From a virus, in the IMG/VR virus record IMGVR_UViG_2861452123_000001, positions 13,139 to 77,138 of that record: a stretch of DNA of 64,000 nt; one strand, 5' to 3'. The notes below the pieces were generated by a model that was given only the letters and a program-made list of their open reading frames with translations, was not told the DNA's origin and made no database searches. Positions 1,909 to 14,871 of this stretch are shown here, in pieces. Position numbers and translations under genes: made by a program. Position 1 is the first letter of the stretch. Each line of letters begins with the position of its first letter.

Positions 1909-3132
1909 CTACGTTCCCTTCACATTCATGACCTGGCGCAGCGTCGTGACGACTTCCACTAGGGGGTCCGCATCGGCCATCACCTGGTCGATGTCCTTGT
2001 ACGCGCCGGGGATCTCATCGATCCACTCATCGCCATGCCGGTACTCGATGCCCTCCATGGCTGCCGCGAGATCGTCAGCGGTGAACAGTTCCTTCGCCTT
2101 GGTCCGGCTGAACTTCCGACCAGCACCGTGCGGGGCAGAGAACAGTCCGGCCTCGTTGCCCTTCCCCCGCACCACGTACGACTTCGTGCCCATGGAGCCG
2201 GGGATAACACCCAGCTTCCCATCGTGGGCATCGATCGCTCCCTTGCGAGTGAGCCATACCCGTTGTCCCCCAATGGTTTCCGGTACGGTGTAGTTGTGGT
2301 GGCAGTTGATCCGGTCGATCTCGACGCGCTGTGGCTGCACACCCATCCACCAGGCGAACACCTGGACGAACCGGTCCATCATCTCGGCCCGGTTCAGGAA
2401 CGCGAACCGCTGCGCCCACTCCAGATCCTTGATGTAGCGGTCGAACTCAGGCGTGCCCTCTTCGAGGAATGCCAGATCACGGTTGGGGAGCTTGTAGTTC
2501 GCGCACTTGCAGTTCTCGATCGCGTGAGGCGCGACCTGCTTCTGGAGGCAGTACTCCGTGGCCACCTTGATGTGGCGCTGTGCGATCTTGTTGCCGACGC
2601 CACGGCTACCGCTGTGCAGGAACAGCCACACGTTGTCGTCGGCGTCCACACACAGCTCGATGAAGTGGTTACCGCCGCCGAGCGAGCCGAGCTGCTCCAT
2701 CCACTTCGGCGAGTGCGACAGATCCACGTCCAGCTTCTGCTGCAACTGGATCAGCTCTTCGTGCTTCGCCTTCGTGAACGTGAACCGCTGCAGCGTCTTG
2801 TTGTAGTTGCCGGGGCTGAGCGGGATGGCCTCCTCGACCTGGCGGCGCAACGATGCGAGGTCGAGGTGTGAGATCAGATCCCACTTGAACCGCGTGGCGA
2901 CGGCGATCATGCCGCAGCCGATGTCGACGCCGACCGCAGCAGGGATCACCGCACCCCTCGTCGGGATGACGGTGCCGACCGCAGATCCCTTGCCCGAGTG
3001 AGCATCCGGCATCAGTGCGACGTGCGGGTAGACGAACGGCATGCTCGCTGTTTCCTTCGCCTGCTCCACCGTGTTGTGGTCGATCATGCTGGCGAAGTTG
3101 ACGAGCTTCGGCGCGAGAGTTGTGGCGCTCAC
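1909..3132 (-). CDS. rtcB: RtcB RNA ligase
   Basis: MPDAHSG, GVDIGCGM, QLGSLGGGNHFIE, LHSGSRG, HHNY, RKGA, PGSMG, HGAGR, DEIPGAYK motifs. Confidence 0.97.
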   Translation of the reverse strand: MSATTLAPKLVNFASMIDHNTVEQAKETASMPFVYPHVALMPDAHSGKGSAVGTVIPTRGAVIPAAVGVDIGCGMIAVATRFKWDLISHLDLASLRRQVEEAIPLSPGNYNKTLQRFTFTKAKHEELIQLQQKLDVDLSHSPKWMEQLGSLGGGNHFIELCVDADDNVWLFLHSGSRGVGNKIAQRHIKVATEYCLQKQVAPHAIENCKCANYKLPNRDLAFLEEGTPEFDRYIKDLEWAQRFAFLNRAEMMDRFVQVFAWWMGVQPQRVEIDRINCHHNYTVPETIGGQRVWLTRKGAIDAHDGKLGVIPGSMGTKSYVVRGKGNEAGLFSAPHGAGRKFSRTKAKELFTADDLAAAMEGIEYRHGDEWIDEIPGAYKDIDQVMADADPLVEVVTTLRQVMNVKGT

Positions 3133-3500
3133 CGGACATCCCATTCCTTGGAATGCGCCTTGATGGCGTCCACGCATGCCCGCTTGCCGTCGATCAGGTA
3201 CGAGCTGACCCCCGACTGCCACTCGTAGCCCGTGAGGCCACGGATGTAGGCGATGGCGTCAGCCGTCGACAGGGGCTGCCCCCAGTCGCCGTCGGAACGG
3301 AAGTCCTCAAACGGCGACGGGCATGAACAACCGCTGTCCTCGCCGATCCGGTACGCCTTGCGCTTGGTGTCGTACAGGACGACGAGGGTGTCGAAGCTGT
3401 AGCAGGGTTCGGACTTCTCGAACTCGAAGACGAACTCCAGGTGCTCCAGGCCGTCGTGATACGACAGCCAATACGGGCGCTCGTACGTCTCGGCGCTCAC
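3129..3500 (-). CDS. Hypothetical protein (DSGCSCPSPFED family of actinophages)
   Basis: GTGA-coupled ORF; Cys motif. Confidence 0.7.
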   Translation of the reverse strand: MSAETYERPYWLSYHDGLEHLEFVFEFEKSEPCYSFDTLVVLYDTKRKAYRIGEDSGCSCPSPFEDFRSDGDWGQPLSTADAIAYIRGLTGYEWQSGVSSYLIDGKRACVDAIKAHSKEWDVR

Positions 3501-4582: not shown

Positions 4583-4617
4583 ACGAAAAAGCCCCCAGCT
4601 CTTACGAACTGGGGGCT
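4583..4617 (-). terminator. Intrinsic terminator of the tRNA operon
   Basis: AGCCCCCAG...CTGGGGGCT hairpin followed by TTTT. Confidence 0.85.
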
Positions 4618-4620
4618 GAC

Positions 4621-4693
4621 GTACTCGATGCGAGTATCGATCTCGCGCCTACAGATTGAGAATCTGGGATGCTTCCATTACACCAATCGAGCA
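4621..4693 (-). tRNA. tRNA-Glu(CTC)
   Basis: Cloverleaf, loop TT-CTC-AA, T loop ATCGATA. Confidence 0.8.
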
Positions 4694-4703
4694 TTGAAAC
4701 GAG

Positions 4704-4779
4704 CGCGGACAGCGGGATTTGAACCCGCGATCTCCACCGTGACAGGGTGGCGGGGACGGCCTGACTCCCCTATGCCTGC
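4704..4779 (-). tRNA. tRNA-Asp(GTC)
   Basis: CCACC-CTGTCAC-GGTGG arm, T loop TTCAAAT, G73. Confidence 0.9.
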
Positions 4780-4800
4780 ATGACTATTCAGTTATTGGAG

Positions 4801-4874
4801 TGGAGACGGTGAGAATCGAACTCGACCGCAGCAATCTTGCAAGGATCGCTCGCCCCCTTGGTACATGCGCCCCC
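4801..4874 (-). tRNA. tRNA-Ala(TGC)
   Basis: Loop CT-TGC-AA; G3:U70 pair; A73. Confidence 0.9.
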
Positions 4875-4877
4875 ATT

Positions 4878-4952
4878 GGCTCCCATGGCCGGAATCTCAC
4901 CGACGATCTCCGCGTAGACAGCGTGGCGGGTACTACTACCCTGCACAGGAGC
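4878..4952 (-). tRNA. Divergent second tRNA-Asp(GTC)-like gene
   Basis: Resembles the Asp gene at 4704; loop CT-GTC-TA; T loop TGAGATT. Confidence 0.55.
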
Positions 4953-4982
4953 GGGCAGTCACGCGTCACCGTGACTACTACC

Positions 4983-5060
4983 GGGCTGGAAGTCAGAATC
5001 GAACTGACGTAGTCCTACTTACTAGGTAGGTGCAAAGGGCCAACATTTGCAATTCCAGCC
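4983..5060 (-). tRNA. tRNA-Thr(AGT)
   Basis: CCTAC-CTAGTAA-GTAGG arm; perfect acceptor GGCTGGA/TCCAGCC. Confidence 0.8.
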
Positions 5061-5129
5061 TGACGCGGATGTGCTTCATATACACCACATCTAAGATGCC
5101 AGGCTTACGAACCTGGACCTTCCGCTAAG
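5061..5129 (-). ncRNA. Circularly permuted tRNA-like RNA 1 (YrlA-like topology)
   Basis: GCGGA-AGGT-[CCAGG TTCGTAAG CCTGG]-[CATC TTA GATG]-TG-[GTGT ATATGAA GCAC]-A-TCCGC. Confidence 0.7.
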
Positions 5130-5200
5130 TACCCAATGACCGAATTGAACAGTCGTCAACCGGGTGTAAACCGGCCGCTCTCCCATTGAGCTAATCGGGC
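5130..5200 (-). tRNA. tRNA-Val(TAC)
   Basis: GCCGG-TTTACAC-CCGGT arm; canonical D arm. Confidence 0.88.
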
Positions 5201-5265
5201 TTGAAAACCTGGCCTTGAGGCGCGTGCCCTAGAAGCGTTGCGCCACAGCGGGACAGGTGTTTACG

Positions 5266-5339
5266 AACTGGTAGCGGGATTCGAACCCGCACAACCTGTT
5301 TGGAAGACAGGGATGCTAACCGTTAAACATCACACCAGC
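5266..5339 (-). tRNA. tRNA-Gly(TCC)
   Basis: CCTGT-CTTCCAA-ACAGG arm; U73. Confidence 0.92.
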
Positions 5340-5340
5340 T

Positions 5341-5415
5341 TGGTACGGTCACCGGGTACTGCCCCCAGGTTTCCGTCTTATCAGGACGGCGTCCTTACTA
5401 TTGGACGATGACCGA
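5341..5415 (-). tRNA. tRNA-Ile(GAT)
   Basis: CCGTC-CTGATAA-GACGG arm; encoded ACCA; T loop GGCAGTA. Confidence 0.85.
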
Positions 5416-5416
5416 G

Positions 5417-5489
5417 TGGGTTGCCTGGGATTTGAACCCAGAACTGACACGTTAAGAGCGTGCGGTGATATCCGTTTCACCAACAACCC
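5417..5489 (-). tRNA. tRNA-Lys(CTT)
   Basis: GCACG-CTCTTAA-CGTGT arm; canonical T loop. Confidence 0.92.
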
Positions 5490-5790
5490 ATTGTTGTTGC
5501 CGCAGCTGACGATTCGCTGCGGCGATCTTGCGTACTTCGTTGCGGACGTGCTCGTCGCCTGGGTAGTTCGCCAGGTGCTCGGCTTGCGCCTTCCGCTGCT
5601 CGGCGTCGATGTTGGGCAGATCCTTGCCCAACCAGCACGCCCAGTTGAGGTTCTCATCGGTCAGCTCGACGTTCTGGCCAGCCGCCACGGCGGCGTTGTA
5701 CAGCTCGTCGTACTGCCGATTCCACTCAAGCTCCGCGTCACACAGCGGGCGGGTCATGGCCCAGACTTCGCGGAGGTTTGTGAGGCCCAT
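5452..5790 (-). CDS. Hypothetical protein inside the tRNA operon (3' end overlaps tRNA-Lys)
   Basis: AAGGAC RBS; phage-like codons. Confidence 0.65.
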   Translation of the reverse strand: MGLTNLREVWAMTRPLCDAELEWNRQYDELYNAAVAAGQNVELTDENLNWACWLGKDLPNIDAEQRKAQAEHLANYPGDEHVRNEVRKIAAANRQLRQQQWVVGETDITARS

Positions 5791-5813
5791 CGGTCCCGTC
5801 CTTCGTTGTTGCG

Positions 5814-5887
5814 TAGGTCACCCGAGAGTCGAACTCGGAAACTCTGCAGTCTGAGTGCAGTGGCTTTGCCAGTTTGCCCAGTGACCC
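5814..5887 (-). tRNA. tRNA-Leu(CAG) with short variable loop
   Basis: CTGCA-CTCAGAC-TGCAG arm; variable region only AGTTT; A73. Confidence 0.85.
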
Positions 5888-5888
5888 A

Positions 5889-5948
5889 TGGTGGCTGCCC
5901 GGTAGCCTGAACCCCTGTGAGCGCCAATGCCACCGACCGGCGGCAGCC
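5889..5948 (-). ncRNA. 60-nt hairpin RNA with acceptor-like stem and ACCA end
   Basis: GGCTGCC/GGCAGCC + ACCA; inner CGGTGGC/GCTACCG stem. Confidence 0.5.
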
Positions 5949-6004
5949 GTACTTTCGTGTCAGGGCACCTGGGCCTGAGCACGACCGGGTCCAGGTGCCC
6001 CTTG

Positions 6005-6075
6005 AGTGCCCGCCGCGATTCGAACGCGGGTGACTGGGGTTGCAGCCCAGCGCCTTGCCTCTCGGCCACGGTCAC
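6005..6075 (-). tRNA. tRNA-Cys(GCA)
   Basis: CTGGG-CTGCAAC-CCCAG arm; U73. Confidence 0.92.
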
Positions 6076-6078
6076 AAG

Positions 6079-6153
6079 TGGGGTGGTCGGCCGGTACTGA
6101 CCCGGCGTCGTCGCCGTTCACAGCGCGTGGCTCTACCTTTGAGCTACGACCAC
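6079..6153 (-). tRNA. tRNA-His(GTG)
   Basis: Loop CT-GTG-AA; C73 + CCA; weak anticodon stem; T loop GTCAGTA; T at position -1. Confidence 0.72.
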
Positions 6154-6155
6154 AG

Positions 6156-6228
6156 CACCGCTGACACGATTCGAACGTGCATTTGTGCGCCTTCGTAGGG
6201 CGGTGGGCCTCCGTTGCCCAACAGCGGT
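6156..6228 (-). tRNA. tRNA-Arg(ACG)
   Basis: CGCC-CTACGAA-GGCG arm; canonical T loop. Confidence 0.88.
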
Positions 6229-6253
6229 AGTGAGGCTTACGCCTCGTTGCAGA

Positions 6254-6496
6254 TTAATCCGCGCTGGTTGCCTCGGTGGCGGGCGTTTCGGCCACCGCTG
6301 GCACCTTCTTCGCTGGAGCCTTCTTCGGGGCCGCAGCGGGCTGCTCAGCGTCTTCGATCACTGCGTCGGTCTCGATCACGCCCGTCAGTGGCACCAGGCC
6401 AACCGCAAGGATGAGCTGCTCGATGAGTTCCGCGTGTTCGTTGATCGTGTCCGCTACGGCCTTGTCGATTCGTCCTGTGCTGACTCGTAGTGCCAC
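6254..6496 (-). CDS. Small hypothetical protein with Ala/Pro/Lys-rich tail, inside the tRNA operon
   Basis: GGAGG RBS + GTG; APKKAPAKK segment. Confidence 0.7.
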   Translation of the reverse strand: MALRVSTGRIDKAVADTINEHAELIEQLILAVGLVPLTGVIETDAVIEDAEQPAAAPKKAPAKKVPAVAETPATEATSAD

Positions 6497-6542
6497 TTGT
6501 TCCTCCGATTTGTGTTGTCCGATGCGGCCGCAAAGGACATCG

Positions 6543-6613
6543 TGGCGCAGACGGGATTCGAACCCGTAAAACTGGCTTATGAAACCAGGGTGATTCCGTT
6601 TCACTACCGCGCT
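6543..6613 (-). tRNA. tRNA-Met(CAT) (A1xC72 mismatch)
   Basis: CTGGT-TTCATAA-GCCAG arm; canonical T loop. Confidence 0.85.
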
Positions 6614-6760
6614 GCAGCCGCAGGACGTTTAACGTCCGCTGCGGCACGGACGGGTGTGGAGTGATATGGGGACGGGCGTTGTCCACGGCAACCCTGTAGC
6701 CGTCAGCGTCTTTCACCGGGGACGCAGAGACCGGCACCTACCTAACAACTTTGAGTGGCT

Positions 6761-6934
6761 CTAGGCCGCTATGACAGTGCCGTCCGGTAGGTGCGCCTTC
6801 AGGTCACTCAGTGGAAAGATCCGGCCGGTGAAGTACGTGCCCTCTGGCCATCGTGCCGCTGTCGTGGTTGGTCGGTCCCAGAGCTTCTCGTTGGAGAACA
6901 TTGGGTCGTCCCACCACTGCTTCTCATCTATCAC
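6761..6934 (-). CDS. Possible 57-aa protein starting directly after tRNA-Phe
   Basis: Own translation VIDEKQWWDDPMFSNEKLWDRP...DGTVIAA*; no RBS. Confidence 0.4.
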   Translation of the reverse strand: MIDEKQWWDDPMFSNEKLWDRPTTTAARWPEGTYFTGRIFPLSDLKAHLPDGTVIAA

Positions 6935-6935
6935 G

Positions 6936-7007
6936 CCGTGATGCCTGGAGCCGAACCAGGGCCTTCGGGTTTTCAGGCCGACGCTCTTCCAACTGAGCTA
7001 CAACACG
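6936..7007 (-). tRNA. tRNA-Phe(GAA)
   Basis: Loop CT-GAA-AA; canonical D arm. Confidence 0.85.
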
Positions 7008-7022
7008 ATTGGTTCCTCTGTT

Positions 7023-7242
7023 GTTGACGCTGCGAGGCACTCGGGACCGCGAATCCCGATCAGCGGGCGCCCTAACCCCGACACCCAGGGAGTCCCCCTA
7101 TTCCGCTGACCCACGTCAGTTTGGGACCACTGATCTGCGTGGAGGTTGGGGGGCCGATATTCCTACGCGCCTCGGCTTAACGCGAACTGGGGTGCCTCCG
7201 CGACGGCGCGTACGGTTCCTTGCAATCGAAGTCACCGTCAAC
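7023..7242 (-). ncRNA. ~220-nt structured RNA of unknown class
   Basis: Terminal stem GTTGACG/CGTCAAC; internal TACGCGCC/GGCGCGTA, CTGAC/GTCAG and TCGGGA/TCCCGA stems. Confidence 0.5.
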
Positions 7243-7249
7243 CCAAGCG

Positions 7250-7333
7250 CGGAGAGGAGTGGGCACGATCCACACGGCTGGGCCGCAAGCTGATTAGCAA
7301 TCAGTTCCCGCCACCTGGCGGGCTCCACTCTCC
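7250..7333 (-). tRNA. tRNA-Ser(GCT)
   Basis: Loop TT-GCT-AA; long variable arm; G73; T loop ATCGTGC. Confidence 0.85.
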
Positions 7334-7338
7334 AAAGT

Positions 7339-7410
7339 TGGCCTACCCTTTCAGACCGGCGTTGTCCCGGTGCACCTGTATTCACTCTTAGCCATGGCCA
7401 GGCGGGTAGG
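7339..7410 (-). ncRNA. Three-way-junction RNA ending in CCA
   Basis: CCTACCC/GGGTAGG + CCA; arms GCCTG/CAGGT and ACCGG/CCGGT. Confidence 0.45.
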
Positions 7411-7415
7411 TAACG

Positions 7416-7504
7416 CGGAAGGCAGAGGGCACGCTCCCCGAGCAGCCGAACTGCTACCTGGCTTTCGACACCAGTCGCCCCACTACGGGACTGCTGTACC
7501 TTCC
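7416..7504 (-). tRNA. tRNA-Ser(CGA)
   Basis: Loop GT-CGA-AA; long variable arm AGCAG/CTGCT; G73; T loop AGCGTGC. Confidence 0.8.
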
Positions 7505-7595
7505 ATGGGACGTATAACACTGTTTGTTCGGGTTCCCCCTACCGGCGTTACGTCATTATCAACCCGGTCTGCCACGACCCCGTCGTGGACTTTCG

Positions 7596-7670
7596 TCGGG
7601 AAGGCTGGATTCGAACCAGCGACACCCCGCTTCCAAAGCGGTCAGGCTGACCAAGCTGCCCCACATCCCG
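7596..7670 (-). tRNA. tRNA-Pro(TGG)
   Basis: CCGC-TTTGGAA-GCGG arm; C1:G72; A73. Confidence 0.92.
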
Positions 7671-7714
7671 ATTGCGACGGTTCCCACGACTTAGCTTTAC
7701 CGACAACGCATCAC

Positions 7715-7788
7715 GCACCCCGTCGAGGATTCGAACCTCAACCACCTGGATCAGAGCCAGGCATCCTGCCAGTTAAACGAACAGGGTA
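7715..7788 (-). tRNA. tRNA-Gln(CTG)
   Basis: CCTGG-CTCTGAT-CCAGG arm; canonical T loop. Confidence 0.88.
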
Positions 7789-7985
7789 TGGAGACGCTTC
7801 GTTCAGTCGGCCCAGCGTCACTGCCGATCACGCGCCCAGGCTGGGGACGGCCCTACCTACCCTCACCGTGCCCACGGGCGGGAGTGGTACCTCGCGTGTA
7901 TGTCAGAGCGGGTTCTCCCATTCATGACTGAGAGGGTGGACCGCTGACCCAGTTGACGGTTTGCCCCGGCCAACCAACGGAGTTG

Positions 7986-8067
7986 TCTCGACTGATGGAT
8001 TCGAACCACCACACCCGAAAGCTCTGATTTACAGTCAGAGATCCTTCGCCAATAGGAGAGAGCCGAG
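7986..8067 (-). tRNA. tRNA-Tyr(GTA)
   Basis: TCTGA-CTGTAAA-TCAGA arm; variable arm; C1:G72; A73. Confidence 0.88.
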
Positions 8068-8072
8068 ATGTC

Positions 8073-8173
8073 ATGGAATGACCGGCTTTTCCCCGGCATC
8101 TGCGACCGTCGACTGTCGCCGTGCTACCAAGAGCCGTCGCCACATGGCTGGTTTACCCTTGCACCACATTCCA
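8073..8173 (-). ncRNA. tRNA-like RNA with the anticodon arm replaced by a multi-hairpin insert
   Basis: Acceptor TGGAATG/CATTCCA; D-like and T-like arms; ~50-nt central domain. Confidence 0.5.
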
Positions 8174-8232
8174 AGTTTGGAGCCGGTGCTCGGCTCTTCG
8201 CCGACTAGCTAGCACGCACCGACACGTTTAAC

Positions 8233-8371
8233 GGAGCCGCTCTACCGTTGAGCCGTATACAACTGCCCGCACAAAGCCCCAACTGCTGGTACCGCGTCGG
8301 TGTAACTCTGCTCTCCCCCTGCAGAGGGAGCGGGAGGTCGCAGGGGGATTCGAACCCCCAACCACTCCTCG
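8233..8371 (-). ncRNA. Circularly permuted tRNA-like RNA 2
   Basis: GGAGT-GGTT-[GGGGG TTCGAAT CCCCC]-TGCGAC...GTTGTA-TACG-[GCTC AACGGTA GAGC]-G-GCTCC. Confidence 0.7.
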
Positions 8372-8444
8372 CTGGCCCACCAGGATTCGAACCTAGAGTC
8401 ACGCCTTAACAGGGCGTTGGTTTACCGGATTAACCGACAGGCCA
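8372..8444 (-). tRNA. tRNA-Asn(GTT)
   Basis: ACGCC-CTGTTAA-GGCGT arm; G73. Confidence 0.92.
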
Positions 8445-8848
8445 ATGGTATTGCAGTAATCACATCCGCTGCAACGCTGCCGATGTGTCCTTCCCCGATG
8501 GCAATTAGCGCACACCAGGTCGCACTTCACTGCTTCCGCTCGCATGCGGGCGAGGGAAACGATTGTGTTGCCGTCCGCTACACCGAATAGCTTCTCGGCC
8601 GGATCTCGGTGATCAAAATCCATCGCGTACGGCGGATATTCATTGCCGCAGTCGAGACACTTGCCCCCGTGCTCGGCAACCAGGGTTGCCTTGTTCTTTC
8701 GCCTAGTTCGAGCCACTGCATCAGAAGCCGATTCCTTTCGGCATACGTTGCAATGTCGGTCTTTTCGGATCACATCAACAGGACGATCACTGCGGTACTG
8801 GAACTCACTAAGTGCTTTCAATTTCCCACACTTGGGGCACGCTTTCAT
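8399..8848 (-). CDS. Free-standing HNH (homing-type) endonuclease in the tRNA operon
   Basis: CPKC...CNVC Zn motif, CLDC, MDFDHRDP, CDLVCANCH; RBS GAGGGTAGG. Confidence 0.88.
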   Translation of the reverse strand: MKACPKCGKLKALSEFQYRSDRPVDVIRKDRHCNVCRKESASDAVARTRRKNKATLVAEHGGKCLDCGNEYPPYAMDFDHRDPAEKLFGVADGNTIVSLARMRAEAVKCDLVCANCHRGRTHRQRCSGCDYCNTIGLSVNPVNQRPVKA

Positions 8849-9065
8849 GAGTTCACCTACCCTCTTATCAAGTCTGCCCCCACGGATGTCCGCAGTGGGG
8901 GATGCGGGGCAAATCGGTCGCCACTCCAGCGCCATTGCAGGCCGCGTATGCAACGGTGTGCGCCACTGTCGTTCGCGTTAGACTGCCTGCAACTAGGGCC
9001 GAACGGCGAACCGTCCAACCTCCACCACTTGCTTTTGAGGCGGGAAAGCAAGAAACCAAGTAACA

Positions 9066-9189
9066 GGCCCTGTGCTGCCTTACACCACGTCGACTCGCTC
9101 GCTGATCTGGCGGCGGCAGGCATGCGGCTGTACAGACGGCACACGATGTAAACGACGGCGGGACTTCGAAACCCGCACCAGGGCCTTTG
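9066..9189 (-). ncRNA. Circularly permuted tRNA-like RNA 3
   Basis: GGCCC-TGGT-[GCGGG TTTCGAAGT CCCGC]-CGTCG...CGACG-TG-[GTGT AAGGCA GCAC]-A-GGGCC. Confidence 0.72.
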
Positions 9190-9557
9190 TGGAGCTGCCG
9201 AGAATCGAACTCGGGTCTCATGCAGTGTTTGTCAAGCCTTCTACGTGCGTAGCGTTTGGCGACTTCTATACCGCTGCCCTCCGCGAGGCGGTTGCCGGTC
9301 TCCATTCCGGCTCTGCTCATGACTTCCGCTATTTTGCCTCTTGCGACGTGGTGCTCAATTCCTGCGAGGGTTCCCCGTATTTCGGCAGTGGATTGGCACA
9401 CGGAACGGGTGAACCGTTGTGCCCCACTGGACTAAGCCGCTGCGGCGTAGTCGGACGCGGTGAAAGCTGCGTTTATTGGGTTTGCACTGTTACGGGACGT
9501 TGCTTCCCGGCACGCTTCTCAAGACATACAAGCTCATGATCGAAACCTGTCAGCCCC
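9190..9557 (-). ncRNA. ssrA: tmRNA, tag (A)AAFTASDYAAAA
   Basis: 5' GGGGCTGACAGGTTTCGA; 3' GTTCGATTCTCGGCAGCTCCA with G3:U70; AATAAAC-GCA resume site; tag ORF 9470-9432. Confidence 0.95.
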
Positions 9558-9675
9558 AAAGGTATTGCTATGTAGTTGTCAAAGTCCCAATTGAAAGTGC
9601 TCAACCGGATTTTTGTTTGGGGGGGATTTTGAAACCAAAAGCCTTTTACCCAAACCGAAATCGCGGTTTACTGCG

Positions 9676-9748
9676 CGTAACCGGCACGATTCGAACGTGC
9701 ATCCACCCGCTTTGGAGGCGGGGACTCTACCAATTAAGCTACGTTCAC
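9676..9748 (-). tRNA. tRNA-Trp(CCA)
   Basis: CCCGC-CTCCAAA-GCGGG arm; G73. Confidence 0.92.
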
Positions 9749-9749
9749 A

Positions 9750-9784
9750 TGGTGGCCCACCGAGGCTTCGACTCCCGGTGGGCC
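9750..9784 (-). ncRNA. 35-nt acceptor/T-arm minihelix with ACCA end
   Basis: GGCCCAC-CGGG-AGTCGAAG-CC-T-CG-GTGGGCC-A-CCA. Confidence 0.55.
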
Positions 9785-9857
9785 AAGAGCCTGCCTCGCC
9801 ATTGATGGAAGGCTCTTACCTGTACCGCTGTGAGGCATTCGGTGCCTGACATGTATG

Positions 9858-9889
9858 AGATTAGAGGGTCGTGAAGAGGGATTACAGGG
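9858..9889 (-). promoter_or_regulatory. Phage-type promoter of the tRNA operon (CCCTGTAATC-N16-TAATCT)
   Basis: Motif 9889-9880; -10-like hexamer 9863-9858; directly after a terminator. Confidence 0.7.
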
Positions 9890-9890
9890 A

Positions 9891-9936
9891 AACGAAAAGG
9901 CCCCCTGACCGGCGTTGTCGCCAGCCTGGGGGCCTT
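9891..9936 (-). terminator. Intrinsic terminator upstream of the tRNA operon
   Basis: AAGGCCCCC...GGGGGCCTTTTCGTTT. Confidence 0.8.
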
Positions 9937-9956: not shown

Positions 9957-10142
9957 TCAGTTCTGTGGCGTGGGGAAGGAGTGGGCTGGGGCGGTGCCGG
10001 TGCCGTCGATTCGCTGATTCAGCTGGGCCAGCGTGAAGTCAGCGTGCGGGCCTGCGCCGACGAGCGGCTTGACGATGGCGGCGAGGGCGTCCTCGGCTGC
10101 CTGAGATCCGGTGAGGTTGTAGCTAGCGGGATCGAGTGCCAT
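9957..10142 (-). CDS. Hypothetical protein
   Basis: AAAGGA RBS; 61 aa. Confidence 0.7.
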   Translation of the reverse strand: MALDPASYNLTGSQAAEDALAAIVKPLVGAGPHADFTLAQLNQRIDGTGTAPAHSFPTPQN

Positions 10143-13638: not shown

Positions 13639-13877
13639 CAGATGCTGCTCAGGATGCCGTTGGCGTGGACCGTGGTGACGTAGCCGCGATTCACCAGCAC
13701 GTTGGCGGTAGCGACGAGTAGCTCGGCCCTACCCTCGTCGGTGGTGAGATGGTCGAAGAACTGCGGCACGTGGTCGGCCGGGATACCGGCAAACAGGTAG
13801 TTCACCGTGCGGTCGTATCGGTTCACGGTCACGTCGATGGCTACTCCATCGAATGCGCTGGGGTCCACGTCGCTCAC
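13638..13877 (-). CDS. Hypothetical protein
   Basis: 79-aa coupled ORF. Confidence 0.65.
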   Translation of the reverse strand: MSDVDPSAFDGVAIDVTVNRYDRTVNYLFAGIPADHVPQFFDHLTTDEGRAELLVATANVLVNRGYVTTVHANGILSSI

Positions 13878-14116
13878 TGGGTCTCCTCGGTCTTCTTGCT
13901 ACGGGCGATGGCGGCGTTGGCCCAGAACATGGCCTGTTCCAGGTTGGTTAGGGCGAGCGCCTTCTCGCGGCCAGGCGGAATGCGGTCGTCGTAGAGCACC
14001 GCAAGTTCCAGGGTGTCGCGGCGCACCTGTGTGTGAACTGCAGCCTTGACCGGCGACGGTGCATGGTGACTGAACCGGTGCTGGATGTCCTTGTAGGATT
14101 CGTTGGTGCTGTACAT
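13874..14116 (-). CDS. Acb2/Tad1-like nucleotide-signal sponge
   Basis: RFSHHAP...GREKALALTNLEQAMFWANAAIAR. Confidence 0.75.
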   Translation of the reverse strand: MYSTNESYKDIQHRFSHHAPSPVKAAVHTQVRRDTLELAVLYDDRIPPGREKALALTNLEQAMFWANAAIARSKKTEETQ

Positions 14117-14871
14117 CAGATCCCCACTGTGGCAGTTGATTTGAAGCTGTTGCGGTCGCGTCCCCACTTGCCGCACGCCTTGCACTGGAAGCGGCGGTAC
14201 CGGTAGGTGGTGTTTCCGGCGTGTCCTCGATACTGCACGTGATCGGAGCCGCAGTTCGAGCAGCGGATGGTGTCCGAGTCCTCTTCGAACAGGCCGAGAT
14301 TCATGCCTCGTAGCCACGGACGGAGCAGATAGAACAGCTCCTCGGTCAGCTCCACGTCGCGGCGGTTGTACCGCTCCATCGCGGCGTGGGCGCGGGCCAC
14401 GGTACCGGTGTCGGTGGAACGCAGGTCTGACCACAGCCCTGGCGGCGTCTTGTCCTTGCCTTCGAGGCCGAGAACGTCTGCGATGTAGGCCATTCGGTTG
14501 TACAGGAAGTCGAACTCGCGCTTGACGTTGACCATCAGGTCGATGTCGACGTGCGGCGACGGCGGGGTCAGCCCGTGCTCCAGGAGGACGGTGCGGAGAT
14601 GCTTCACGTCGAAGCGTCGGCTGTTCCACCCCACGACGTAGTCGGCTTCATCGAGGATGGCATGGATCTTGCGCGCCATCCCCTCCTGACCGTCGAGCCA
14701 CTCGGCGGAGAACTCGATGTCCGGCTTGTCGAGCCACTTCCACGCGAGGCAGACGGTGCGAGGTGCCTCGCGGAACGCTTCGGGCCGGATGAAGTCGGGC
14801 TTGAAGTCCCATACTTCCGCCAATCCTGCGATTCGCTCAATGTCGAGTGTGACGATCTTTGCGGCGGTCAT
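14116..14871 (-). CDS. RNase H-like (DnaQ/DEDD) 3'-5' exonuclease with C-terminal Zn finger
   Basis: LDIE, GWNSRRFD, YNRRDV, CSNC...CKAC. Confidence 0.85.
   Translation of the reverse strand: MTAAKIVTLDIERIAGLAEVWDFKPDFIRPEAFREAPRTVCLAWKWLDKPDIEFSAEWLDGQEGMARKIHAILDEADYVVGWNSRRFDVKHLRTVLLEHGLTPPSPHVDIDLMVNVKREFDFLYNRMAYIADVLGLEGKDKTPPGLWSDLRSTDTGTVARAHAAMERYNRRDVELTEELFYLLRPWLRGMNLGLFEEDSDTIRCSNCGSDHVQYRGHAGNTTYRYRRFQCKACGKWGRDRNSFKSTATVGI

Follow-up and report, generated by a model that had tools for sequence, protein, structure and literature searches.

A conserved stem-loop before tRNA-Trp in a mycobacterial prophage: a probable leader element of the tRNA/tmRNA operon rather than a free mini-tRNA decoy

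Directly upstream of the first tRNA gene of a phage-derived tRNA array lies a short hairpin followed by the bases ACCA, and the question raised by this locus is whether the hairpin represents a free-standing miniature of the tRNA acceptor arm, or a structure belonging to the leader of the transcript from which the tRNAs are released. A first-pass annotation of the 64,000-nucleotide stretch of DNA analysed here (the window) proposed the former, with a 7-bp acceptor-like stem, a T-like stem, a CCA end and a possible role as a decoy for CCA-modifying toxins. No strand was given in that annotation; the sequence places the element (9784-9750) on the minus strand, with the hairpin (9784-9754) reading 5' to 3' from position 9784 downward.

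The window (G000:C19:80863-144862) is a prophage in an 8.6-Mb mycobacterial genome of approximately 66% G+C, and the tag encoded by the host tmRNA (ADSNQRDYALAA) identifies the host as a mycobacterium in the wide sense. Judged by gene order and sequence, the window is related to the cluster M mycobacteriophages of the Vilmaviridae (Reyvirus, Bongovirus), with which it has in common the order small ORF, terminator, leader, tRNA-Trp, tmRNA and tRNA-Asn. The phage genes encoded on its minus strand include those for a DnaB helicase and an HNH endonuclease, as well as a 2184-aa ORF of tape-measure size. The array, likewise on the minus strand, comprises seventeen tRNAs and the tmRNA between positions 9748 and 4621, with CCA encoded by none of the phage tRNAs. 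A strong terminator (CAGCCCCCAG...CUGGGGGCUUUUU; 4585-4620, minus strand) follows immediately after tRNA-Glu and marks the end of the operon, while the location of an RtcB RNA ligase gene downstream of it (Table 1) points to RNA repair as a component of the module. A further minus-strand gene (13874-14629) encodes a protein of 251 aa in which an Acb2/Tad1 hairpin domain is recognised (E 1e-18), a candidate sponge for cyclic-nucleotide defence signals. A second array of fifteen tRNA genes, the leaders of which do not conform to CNAU, occurs near the end of host contig 6 (G000:C6:7747-10701) and may belong to another mobile element.

Table 1. Features at and around the leader hairpin, with positions in the window
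Feature	Position	Strand	Basis
RtcB RNA ligase, following the tRNA operon here and in cluster M phages	1909-3222	-	Pfam, 373 bits
tRNA-Trp(cca), first gene of the tRNA/tmRNA operon; CCA not encoded	9675..9748	-	ARAGORN; Rfam tRNA, 57.7 bits
Single-stranded linker ACCAU between hairpin and tRNA-Trp (pre-tRNA-Trp leader -5 to -1)	9749..9753	-	Sequence
Leader hairpin ("minihelix")	9754..9784	-	Fold, 31-mer stability scan, covariation in 8 phages, strand asymmetry
Second leader hairpin (AAGAGCC...GGCUCUU)	9785..9817	-	Leader folds
First small leader hairpin (AGGCA CCGAA UGCCU), then conserved GCGGUACA block	9833..9847	-	Sequence
Promoter-like conserved block CCTGTAATC-N14-TCTAATCT	9858..9888	-	Alignment; promoter role inferred
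Intrinsic-terminator-like hairpin with U run, end of the upstream gene block	9895..9936	-	Sequence, fold, conserved in cluster M
61-aa ORF, Estes gp102 counterpart, last protein gene before the tRNA operon	9957..10142	-	ORF list, translation

No closer relatives of the window lineage were found by searching viral contigs for the exact minihelix, by searching the DNA of 400 genomes from the family, or by looking for the 5' half of tRNA-Trp in contigs of genomes and viruses. The 400-genome search gave two 30-nt matches, which were rejected as chance, being located in a coding region without a tRNA. Metagenomes yielded nothing with the promoter pattern; with a looser tRNA-Trp pattern, the tRNA genes recovered from them were all unrelated and had GTG (His-type) anticodons. 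Relatives of the 61-aa neighbour protein were not found in viral contigs, while an RtcB-anchored search of genome contigs recovered one prophage already present in IMG/VR and host RtcB loci devoid of an array. No RNA run containing the stretch was found. In the Gordonia phage OneUp (L040:464-612), two odd tRNA-like genes (tRNA-OTHER), spaced 2-3 nt apart, directly precede tRNA-Trp, and one of these has no readable anticodon. Homology of OneUp to the 3' strand of the hairpin was considered on the basis of an apparent 16-nt blastn extension, which is too weak for such a claim.

The outer stem of the hairpin consists of seven base pairs between GGCCCAC (9784-9778) and GUGGGCC (9760-9754), as the first-pass annotation had claimed. 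It is followed by an inner stem of four pairs (C-G, G-C, G-U and G-C) formed by CGGG with CCUCG, which continues to an A (bulged, or else facing a C), and by the loop region GUCGAAG. On the 3' side the stem is succeeded by an A, by CCA (together ACCA, 9753-9750) and by U9749. The stem thus ends 5 nt, and ACCA 1 nt, before tRNA-Trp, the latter distance being that originally reported, with both ARAGORN and Rfam placing the start of the tRNA at 9748. The minimum free energy of the hairpin is -25.2 kcal/mol, compared with an average of -13.1 kcal/mol for 200 dinucleotide shuffles (z = -4.8), none of which (0/200) folds as well. A scan of approximately 32,000 31-nt windows per strand ranks it among the handful of most stable 31-mers of the minus strand, the others being terminators. 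The structure is far beyond what would arise by chance. It is not a canonical intrinsic terminator, since no U run is present and the stem is followed by ACCAUGUGAACG, and the terminator scanner made no call there.

A hairpin ending a few bases before tRNA-Trp is present in every relative examined. Base pairs were tabulated for eight sequences (the window, Estes, Aziz, MrMagoo, Rey, Nanosmite, PegLeg and Reindeer) by means of a script anchored on the stem ends, as MAFFT alignments of the hairpins were out of structural register; Bongo, listed with PegLeg, also has a hairpin at the same site. All 56 of the 56 outer-stem cells are occupied by standard pairs. Pairs 1 (G-C) and 7 (C-G) are invariant, while pairs 2 to 6 vary on both sides between lineages, so that five of the seven pairs covary (in order: G-C/A-U; C-G/G-C; C-G/G-U/A-U; C-G/A-U; A-U/U-G/U-A). 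Furthermore, owing to G-U pairs, the complementary strand folds less stably than the tRNA-sense strand, by 3-4 kcal/mol, in the window, PegLeg and Estes. Taken together, the covariation and the strand bias of the G-U pairs argue that the hairpin is a selected RNA structure on the transcribed, tRNA-sense strand and not a DNA palindrome, and they support the implication of the first-pass annotation that a real RNA element is encoded here. Despite the turnover of the stem sequence, the G at pair 1, the C-G at pair 7, an "AC" following the stem and a loop motif common to the relatives (UCGAAGC, GUGAAGC, AUGAAGC or UUGAGGC) have remained fixed. The Reyvirus leaders (Estes L001:3233-3302, L034 and L035) contain a series of two or three hairpins, with an A/C-rich linker (CACCC, AACC or ACCU) after each. 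The conserved GAAGC loop belongs to the last hairpin but one, and an additional hairpin follows before the tRNA, an arrangement suggestive of hairpin duplication or insertion.

The bases following the stem are of a different character. ACCA occurs in the window only, and CCA follows the stem in none of the eleven relatives, most cluster M phages having ACCU, Nanosmite ACAU, Reindeer ACGU and four prophage relatives GAU or UUU. The third base after the stem varies (C, A or G), while ACC is kept in three lineages, and the ACCU of cluster M departs from the consensus of the array at position -2. Among the eighteen tRNA and tmRNA genes of the window, C is found at -4 in 13/18 leaders, C (10) or A (6) at -3, A at -2 in 14/18 and U at -1 in 14/18, with no G at -4 or -3 in any of the eighteen, giving the consensus CCAU. 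ACCAU itself also precedes tRNA-Leu, as well as tRNA-Asn, where there is no adjacent stem. For 202 genes of relatives, A at -2 and U at -1 occur in 66% and 65%, respectively, and CCA occupies -4 to -2 in 25 of the 220 genes of the window (18) and relatives (202) combined. In orthologous leaders of close relatives, ACCAU, ACAAU and ACUCU alternate. Thus a C-N-A-U rule can be described for the phage leaders (window 4621-9748, minus strand; loci L041-L049), with A(-2) and U(-1) in approximately 65-78% of genes and G near-absent. Such A/C-rich, G-free linkers are as expected between stems where pairing has to be avoided. Bacterial RNase P prefers U(-1) and A(-2), with contacts between the leader and RnpA as further determinants (PMC4919922). 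The tRNA leaders of the host differ from those of the phage in being largely without U(-1) (4/51), and the phage rule is not simply that of the host; in view of this, a U(-1) preference of the mycobacterial RNase P is extrapolated from E. coli and B. subtilis.

The inner arm bears a marginal resemblance to a T arm. While the 7-bp acceptor-like helix with its invariant G-C first pair is present in all eight phages, the place of a coaxial 5-bp T stem with G53-C61 is taken in the window by four pairs, one of which is G-U, with an A at the position of G53, and in the relatives by 3 bp after an internal loop or by a continuous 10-bp stem. When compared with the T loop U54 U55 C56 R57 A58, U55, C56, G57 and A58 are kept but a G stands at position 54. 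On a T-arm matrix the inner arm scores -0.9, below the 5th percentile (3.7) of 165 real T arms (mean 15.4), although within the top 1.3% of hairpin-matched 17-mers, and the arms of the relatives score between -10 and -28. Neither ARAGORN nor Rfam detected a tRNA-like match in the minihelix. The T-like stem of the first-pass annotation is therefore marginal and not conserved. Its CCA end fares no better: a lack of CCA conservation in related phages had been named there as one observation that would refute that reading, and a discriminator with CCA is indeed not conserved among the homologues. Considering the lack of CCA in the eleven relatives, the array-wide CCAU consensus and the marginal tRNA likeness, the "CCA end" most likely reflects the leader consensus happening to fall next to a stem, and not an acceptor end. 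An origin as attP or as a copy of a host tRNA was also considered and rejected, as the stem is found in no host tRNA.

A conserved terminator and a promoter-like block are located upstream of the hairpin. The 61-aa ORF lies in a region matching gene 102/103 of cluster M (blastn), and is followed by a terminator-like hairpin that was omitted by the consensus terminator scanner, its loop being longer than the scanner permits. Directly after this terminator is the CCTGTAATC-N14-TNTAATCT block, in which neither the boxes nor the distance between them differ among the window and six cluster M phages. A simple sigma-70 scan made no call at this block, which is probably a promoter or operator of the tRNA operon. 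Its two boxes resemble a direct repeat of TAATC. The GCGGUACA block further downstream is likewise conserved in the cluster M alignment, while outside of these short blocks the leader sequence is not conserved, and the leader is much shorter in more distant relatives. Two antisense ORFs on the plus strand (9476-9805 and 9613-9849), which overlap tRNA-Trp, were taken as spurious.

In the arrays of this phage family, stable stems frequently end 1-8 nt upstream of a tRNA, an example being the conserved 10-12-bp stem that four relatives have before tRNA-Gln, and a closed stem, an A/C-rich linker and a tRNA can therefore be regarded as a general design of the family, of which the Trp element is the first and strongest case. 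Before tRNA-Leu (5889-5948, minus strand), a 7-bp stem (GGCUGCC/GGCAGCC) is likewise followed by ACCAU, with ACCA 1 nt before the tRNA and a z value of only -1.7, which is not significant. No matching stem with ACCA was seen at the Leu leaders of relatives, the orthology of which is not established, and this case fits the explanation by leader consensus. A further hairpin of approximately 12 bp (GCCGCAG..GGACGU UAA ACGUCC..UGCGGC; 6617-6645, minus strand) ends 3 nt before tRNA-Met.

On this evidence, we conclude with moderate confidence that the element belongs, as a conserved stem-loop, to the 5' leader of the prophage tRNA/tmRNA operon, and is not a free mini-tRNA decoy. It is located in the putatively transcribed leader and immediately precedes a bona fide tRNA, and the U(-1) and A(-2) of its linker are common to other genes of the operon. 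Transcription would start at the conserved promoter-like block, approximately 105 nt upstream of tRNA-Trp, and the resulting leader of about 100 nt would fold into three hairpins, of which the minihelix is the last and strongest. ACCAU would represent the usual A/C-rich, G-free single-stranded spacer found before nearly every tRNA of this phage family, supplying A(-2) and U(-1). From the 5' end of the tRNA, RNase P is predicted to cut between U9749 and G9748, after which the hairpin would form the 3'-terminal structure of the released leader; the position of the element directly 5' of the first tRNA of the operon fits the earlier suggestion that such a cut would free its 3' end. The role of the hairpin is most likely structural, in that the G/C-rich leader would be locked up and kept from mispairing with tRNA-Trp, while a short open spacer would be offered to RNase P and its protein subunit. 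The hairpin may furthermore shield the released leader from 3' exonucleases. Against this reading, a plain insulator would not need a fixed G1, a fixed C7-G pair, an "AC" after the stem and a loop motif, nor does it explain why ACC is kept in three lineages despite the departure of ACCU at -2.

These residual features leave some room for a mimic of the top half of a tRNA which acts as a processing handle, with RNase P cutting 5' of G9784 and the tRNA-Trp cut freeing the 3' end, although we regard this as unlikely. A 35-nt RNA produced in this manner would then enter the metabolism of tRNA 3' ends (trimming and CCA repair), a step that is similarly unlikely, and might recruit RNase P to the CCA-less phage tRNAs or soak up enzymes and toxins acting on acceptor ends, which would encompass the decoy idea and to which we assign an equally low likelihood. 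The acceptor-like geometry of the hairpin, with a 7-bp outer helix, a G at +1 and about twelve stacked layers, would suit such a substrate, as would the U at -1 on the 5' side of the hairpin itself in the window and Bongovirus. The A-C-C after the stem in three lineages is the sequence with which the L15 loop of RNase P pairs, and hairpins composed of an acceptor stem and T arm are cleaved by the bacterial enzyme (PMC4919922, PMC11143913). The ranking of the inner arm on the T-arm matrix, the absence of encoded CCA from all phage tRNAs, and the RtcB gene downstream also count in its favour. However, CCA is missing from all eleven relatives and the third base varies, CCAU is a property of the whole array, the T-arm score of the window and particularly of the relatives is low, and G53-C61, U54 and any tRNA-like Rfam match are missing. 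In the window the second leader hairpin adjoins the 5' G of the minihelix (G9784) with zero spacer, leaving no single-stranded leader for RNase P at that side. The decoy idea is speculation, though conceivable in biochemical terms, since a bare acceptor stem bearing a CCA end is a substrate of MenT1 (PMC10435456); against it, PF08843 (AbiEii/MenT) has no match in the 100%-complete genome of this one host, while control genomes do match. In its fullest form, in which a selected mimic of the acceptor stem (a 7-bp helix and ACC) would stand at the head of the CCA-less tRNA operon of cluster M-type phages, be cut out by RNase P on both sides, be finished with CCA by host enzymes and act as bait, we consider the proposal very unlikely. 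The same holds for what the bait would do, whether as a recruiter of RNase P and the CCA-adding enzyme or as a sponge for acceptor-end toxins, and for the toxins that could be named as its targets (MenT-type nucleotidyltransferases, CCA-cleaving HEPN nucleases and aminoacyl-tRNA acetyltransferases).

It is also quite unlikely that the released leader, with its three hairpins, serves as a small regulatory RNA, or as an attenuator or pause element setting the output of the tRNA operon; the part this would give to the hairpin, as a protective 3' end or pause structure, is just as improbable. Spacers of bacterial tRNA transcripts can serve as RNA sponges, as is the case for the 3'ETS of leuZ, and the conservation in sequence of the promoter-like block, the single-stranded GCGGUACA block and the loop motif in cluster M and the window, along with a hairpin strength equal to that of the window terminators, would be in keeping with such a function. 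The hairpin is nevertheless followed by no U run, the leader is without a known target or partner, its sequence outside the short blocks is not conserved, and it is much reduced in more distant relatives. That the element is a functionless relic, derived from a tRNA gene which has lost its D and anticodon arms, appears highly improbable. Gene gain and loss are frequent in tRNA arrays, and the inner arm matches the T arm of tRNA-Thr of related prophages at 14/17 positions, but the helix is evidently maintained by selection, as five of its seven pairs have undergone compensatory changes between lineages. Furthermore, its acceptor stem is common to no tRNA of the host or of related phages, the best overall match is weak (12/32 after approximately 290 comparisons), ARAGORN and Rfam detect no tRNA remnant, and none of the relatives carries a complete tRNA gene at this site.

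The phage records examined apparently carry no annotation of the leader hairpin, the promoter-like block or the CCAU rule. If the element is indeed a leader stem-loop, all three can improve the annotation of tRNA 5' ends, and they warn that "CCA-ended hairpins" before phage tRNAs are to be expected by chance in this phage family. The difference between the U(-1)/A(-2) rule of the phage and the host leaders also raises the question of how CCA-less phage tRNAs compete for the mycobacterial RNase P. Should the bait proposal instead be true, the element would be a natural free-standing acceptor-stem RNA used in phage-host conflict.

Several known systems provide points of comparison. Plant mitochondrial t-elements and the mascRNA at the 3' end of MALAT1 are tRNA-like processing signals with a recognisable T loop and elbow. 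The window element resembles them as a partial tRNA shape in a longer transcript, which could direct cuts by RNase P or RNase Z, but differs in having neither T loop nor elbow and in lying beside a real tRNA, which already supplies the cut. RNase P cleaves model hairpins of the acceptor stem and T arm (McClain, Guerrier-Takada and Altman 1987, reviewed in PMC11143913), and these, like the synthetic minihelices which can be aminoacylated, have in common with the window element a 7-bp helix that leads into another short helix with a loop of about 7 nt, to which the window adds an A resembling A73 and CCA after the stem. The models are, however, laboratory constructs with a true T loop, whereas the window element is without G53-C61 and U54, and its CCA is internal to the transcript and not conserved in relatives. 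Among phage RNAs, the C4 antisense RNA of P1/P7 and the phage M3 RNA are hairpin-type RNAs too, with ends made by the tRNA-processing enzyme of the host (PMC4919922, PMC11143913). Their regulatory roles and cleavage are established, while the window element is known from its sequence, which is unrelated to theirs. For ordinary pre-tRNA leaders, no conserved and covarying hairpin of 11-13 bp situated 4-5 nt from the cleavage site is known, and in this the window element differs from them. It is nonetheless like the 5' leaders of bacterial pre-tRNAs (PMC4919922) in its position directly before the 5' end of a tRNA, and in its A-U-ending, G-poor, single-stranded linker, the consensus of which recurs at the eighteen genes of the window and at approximately 200 genes of its relatives.
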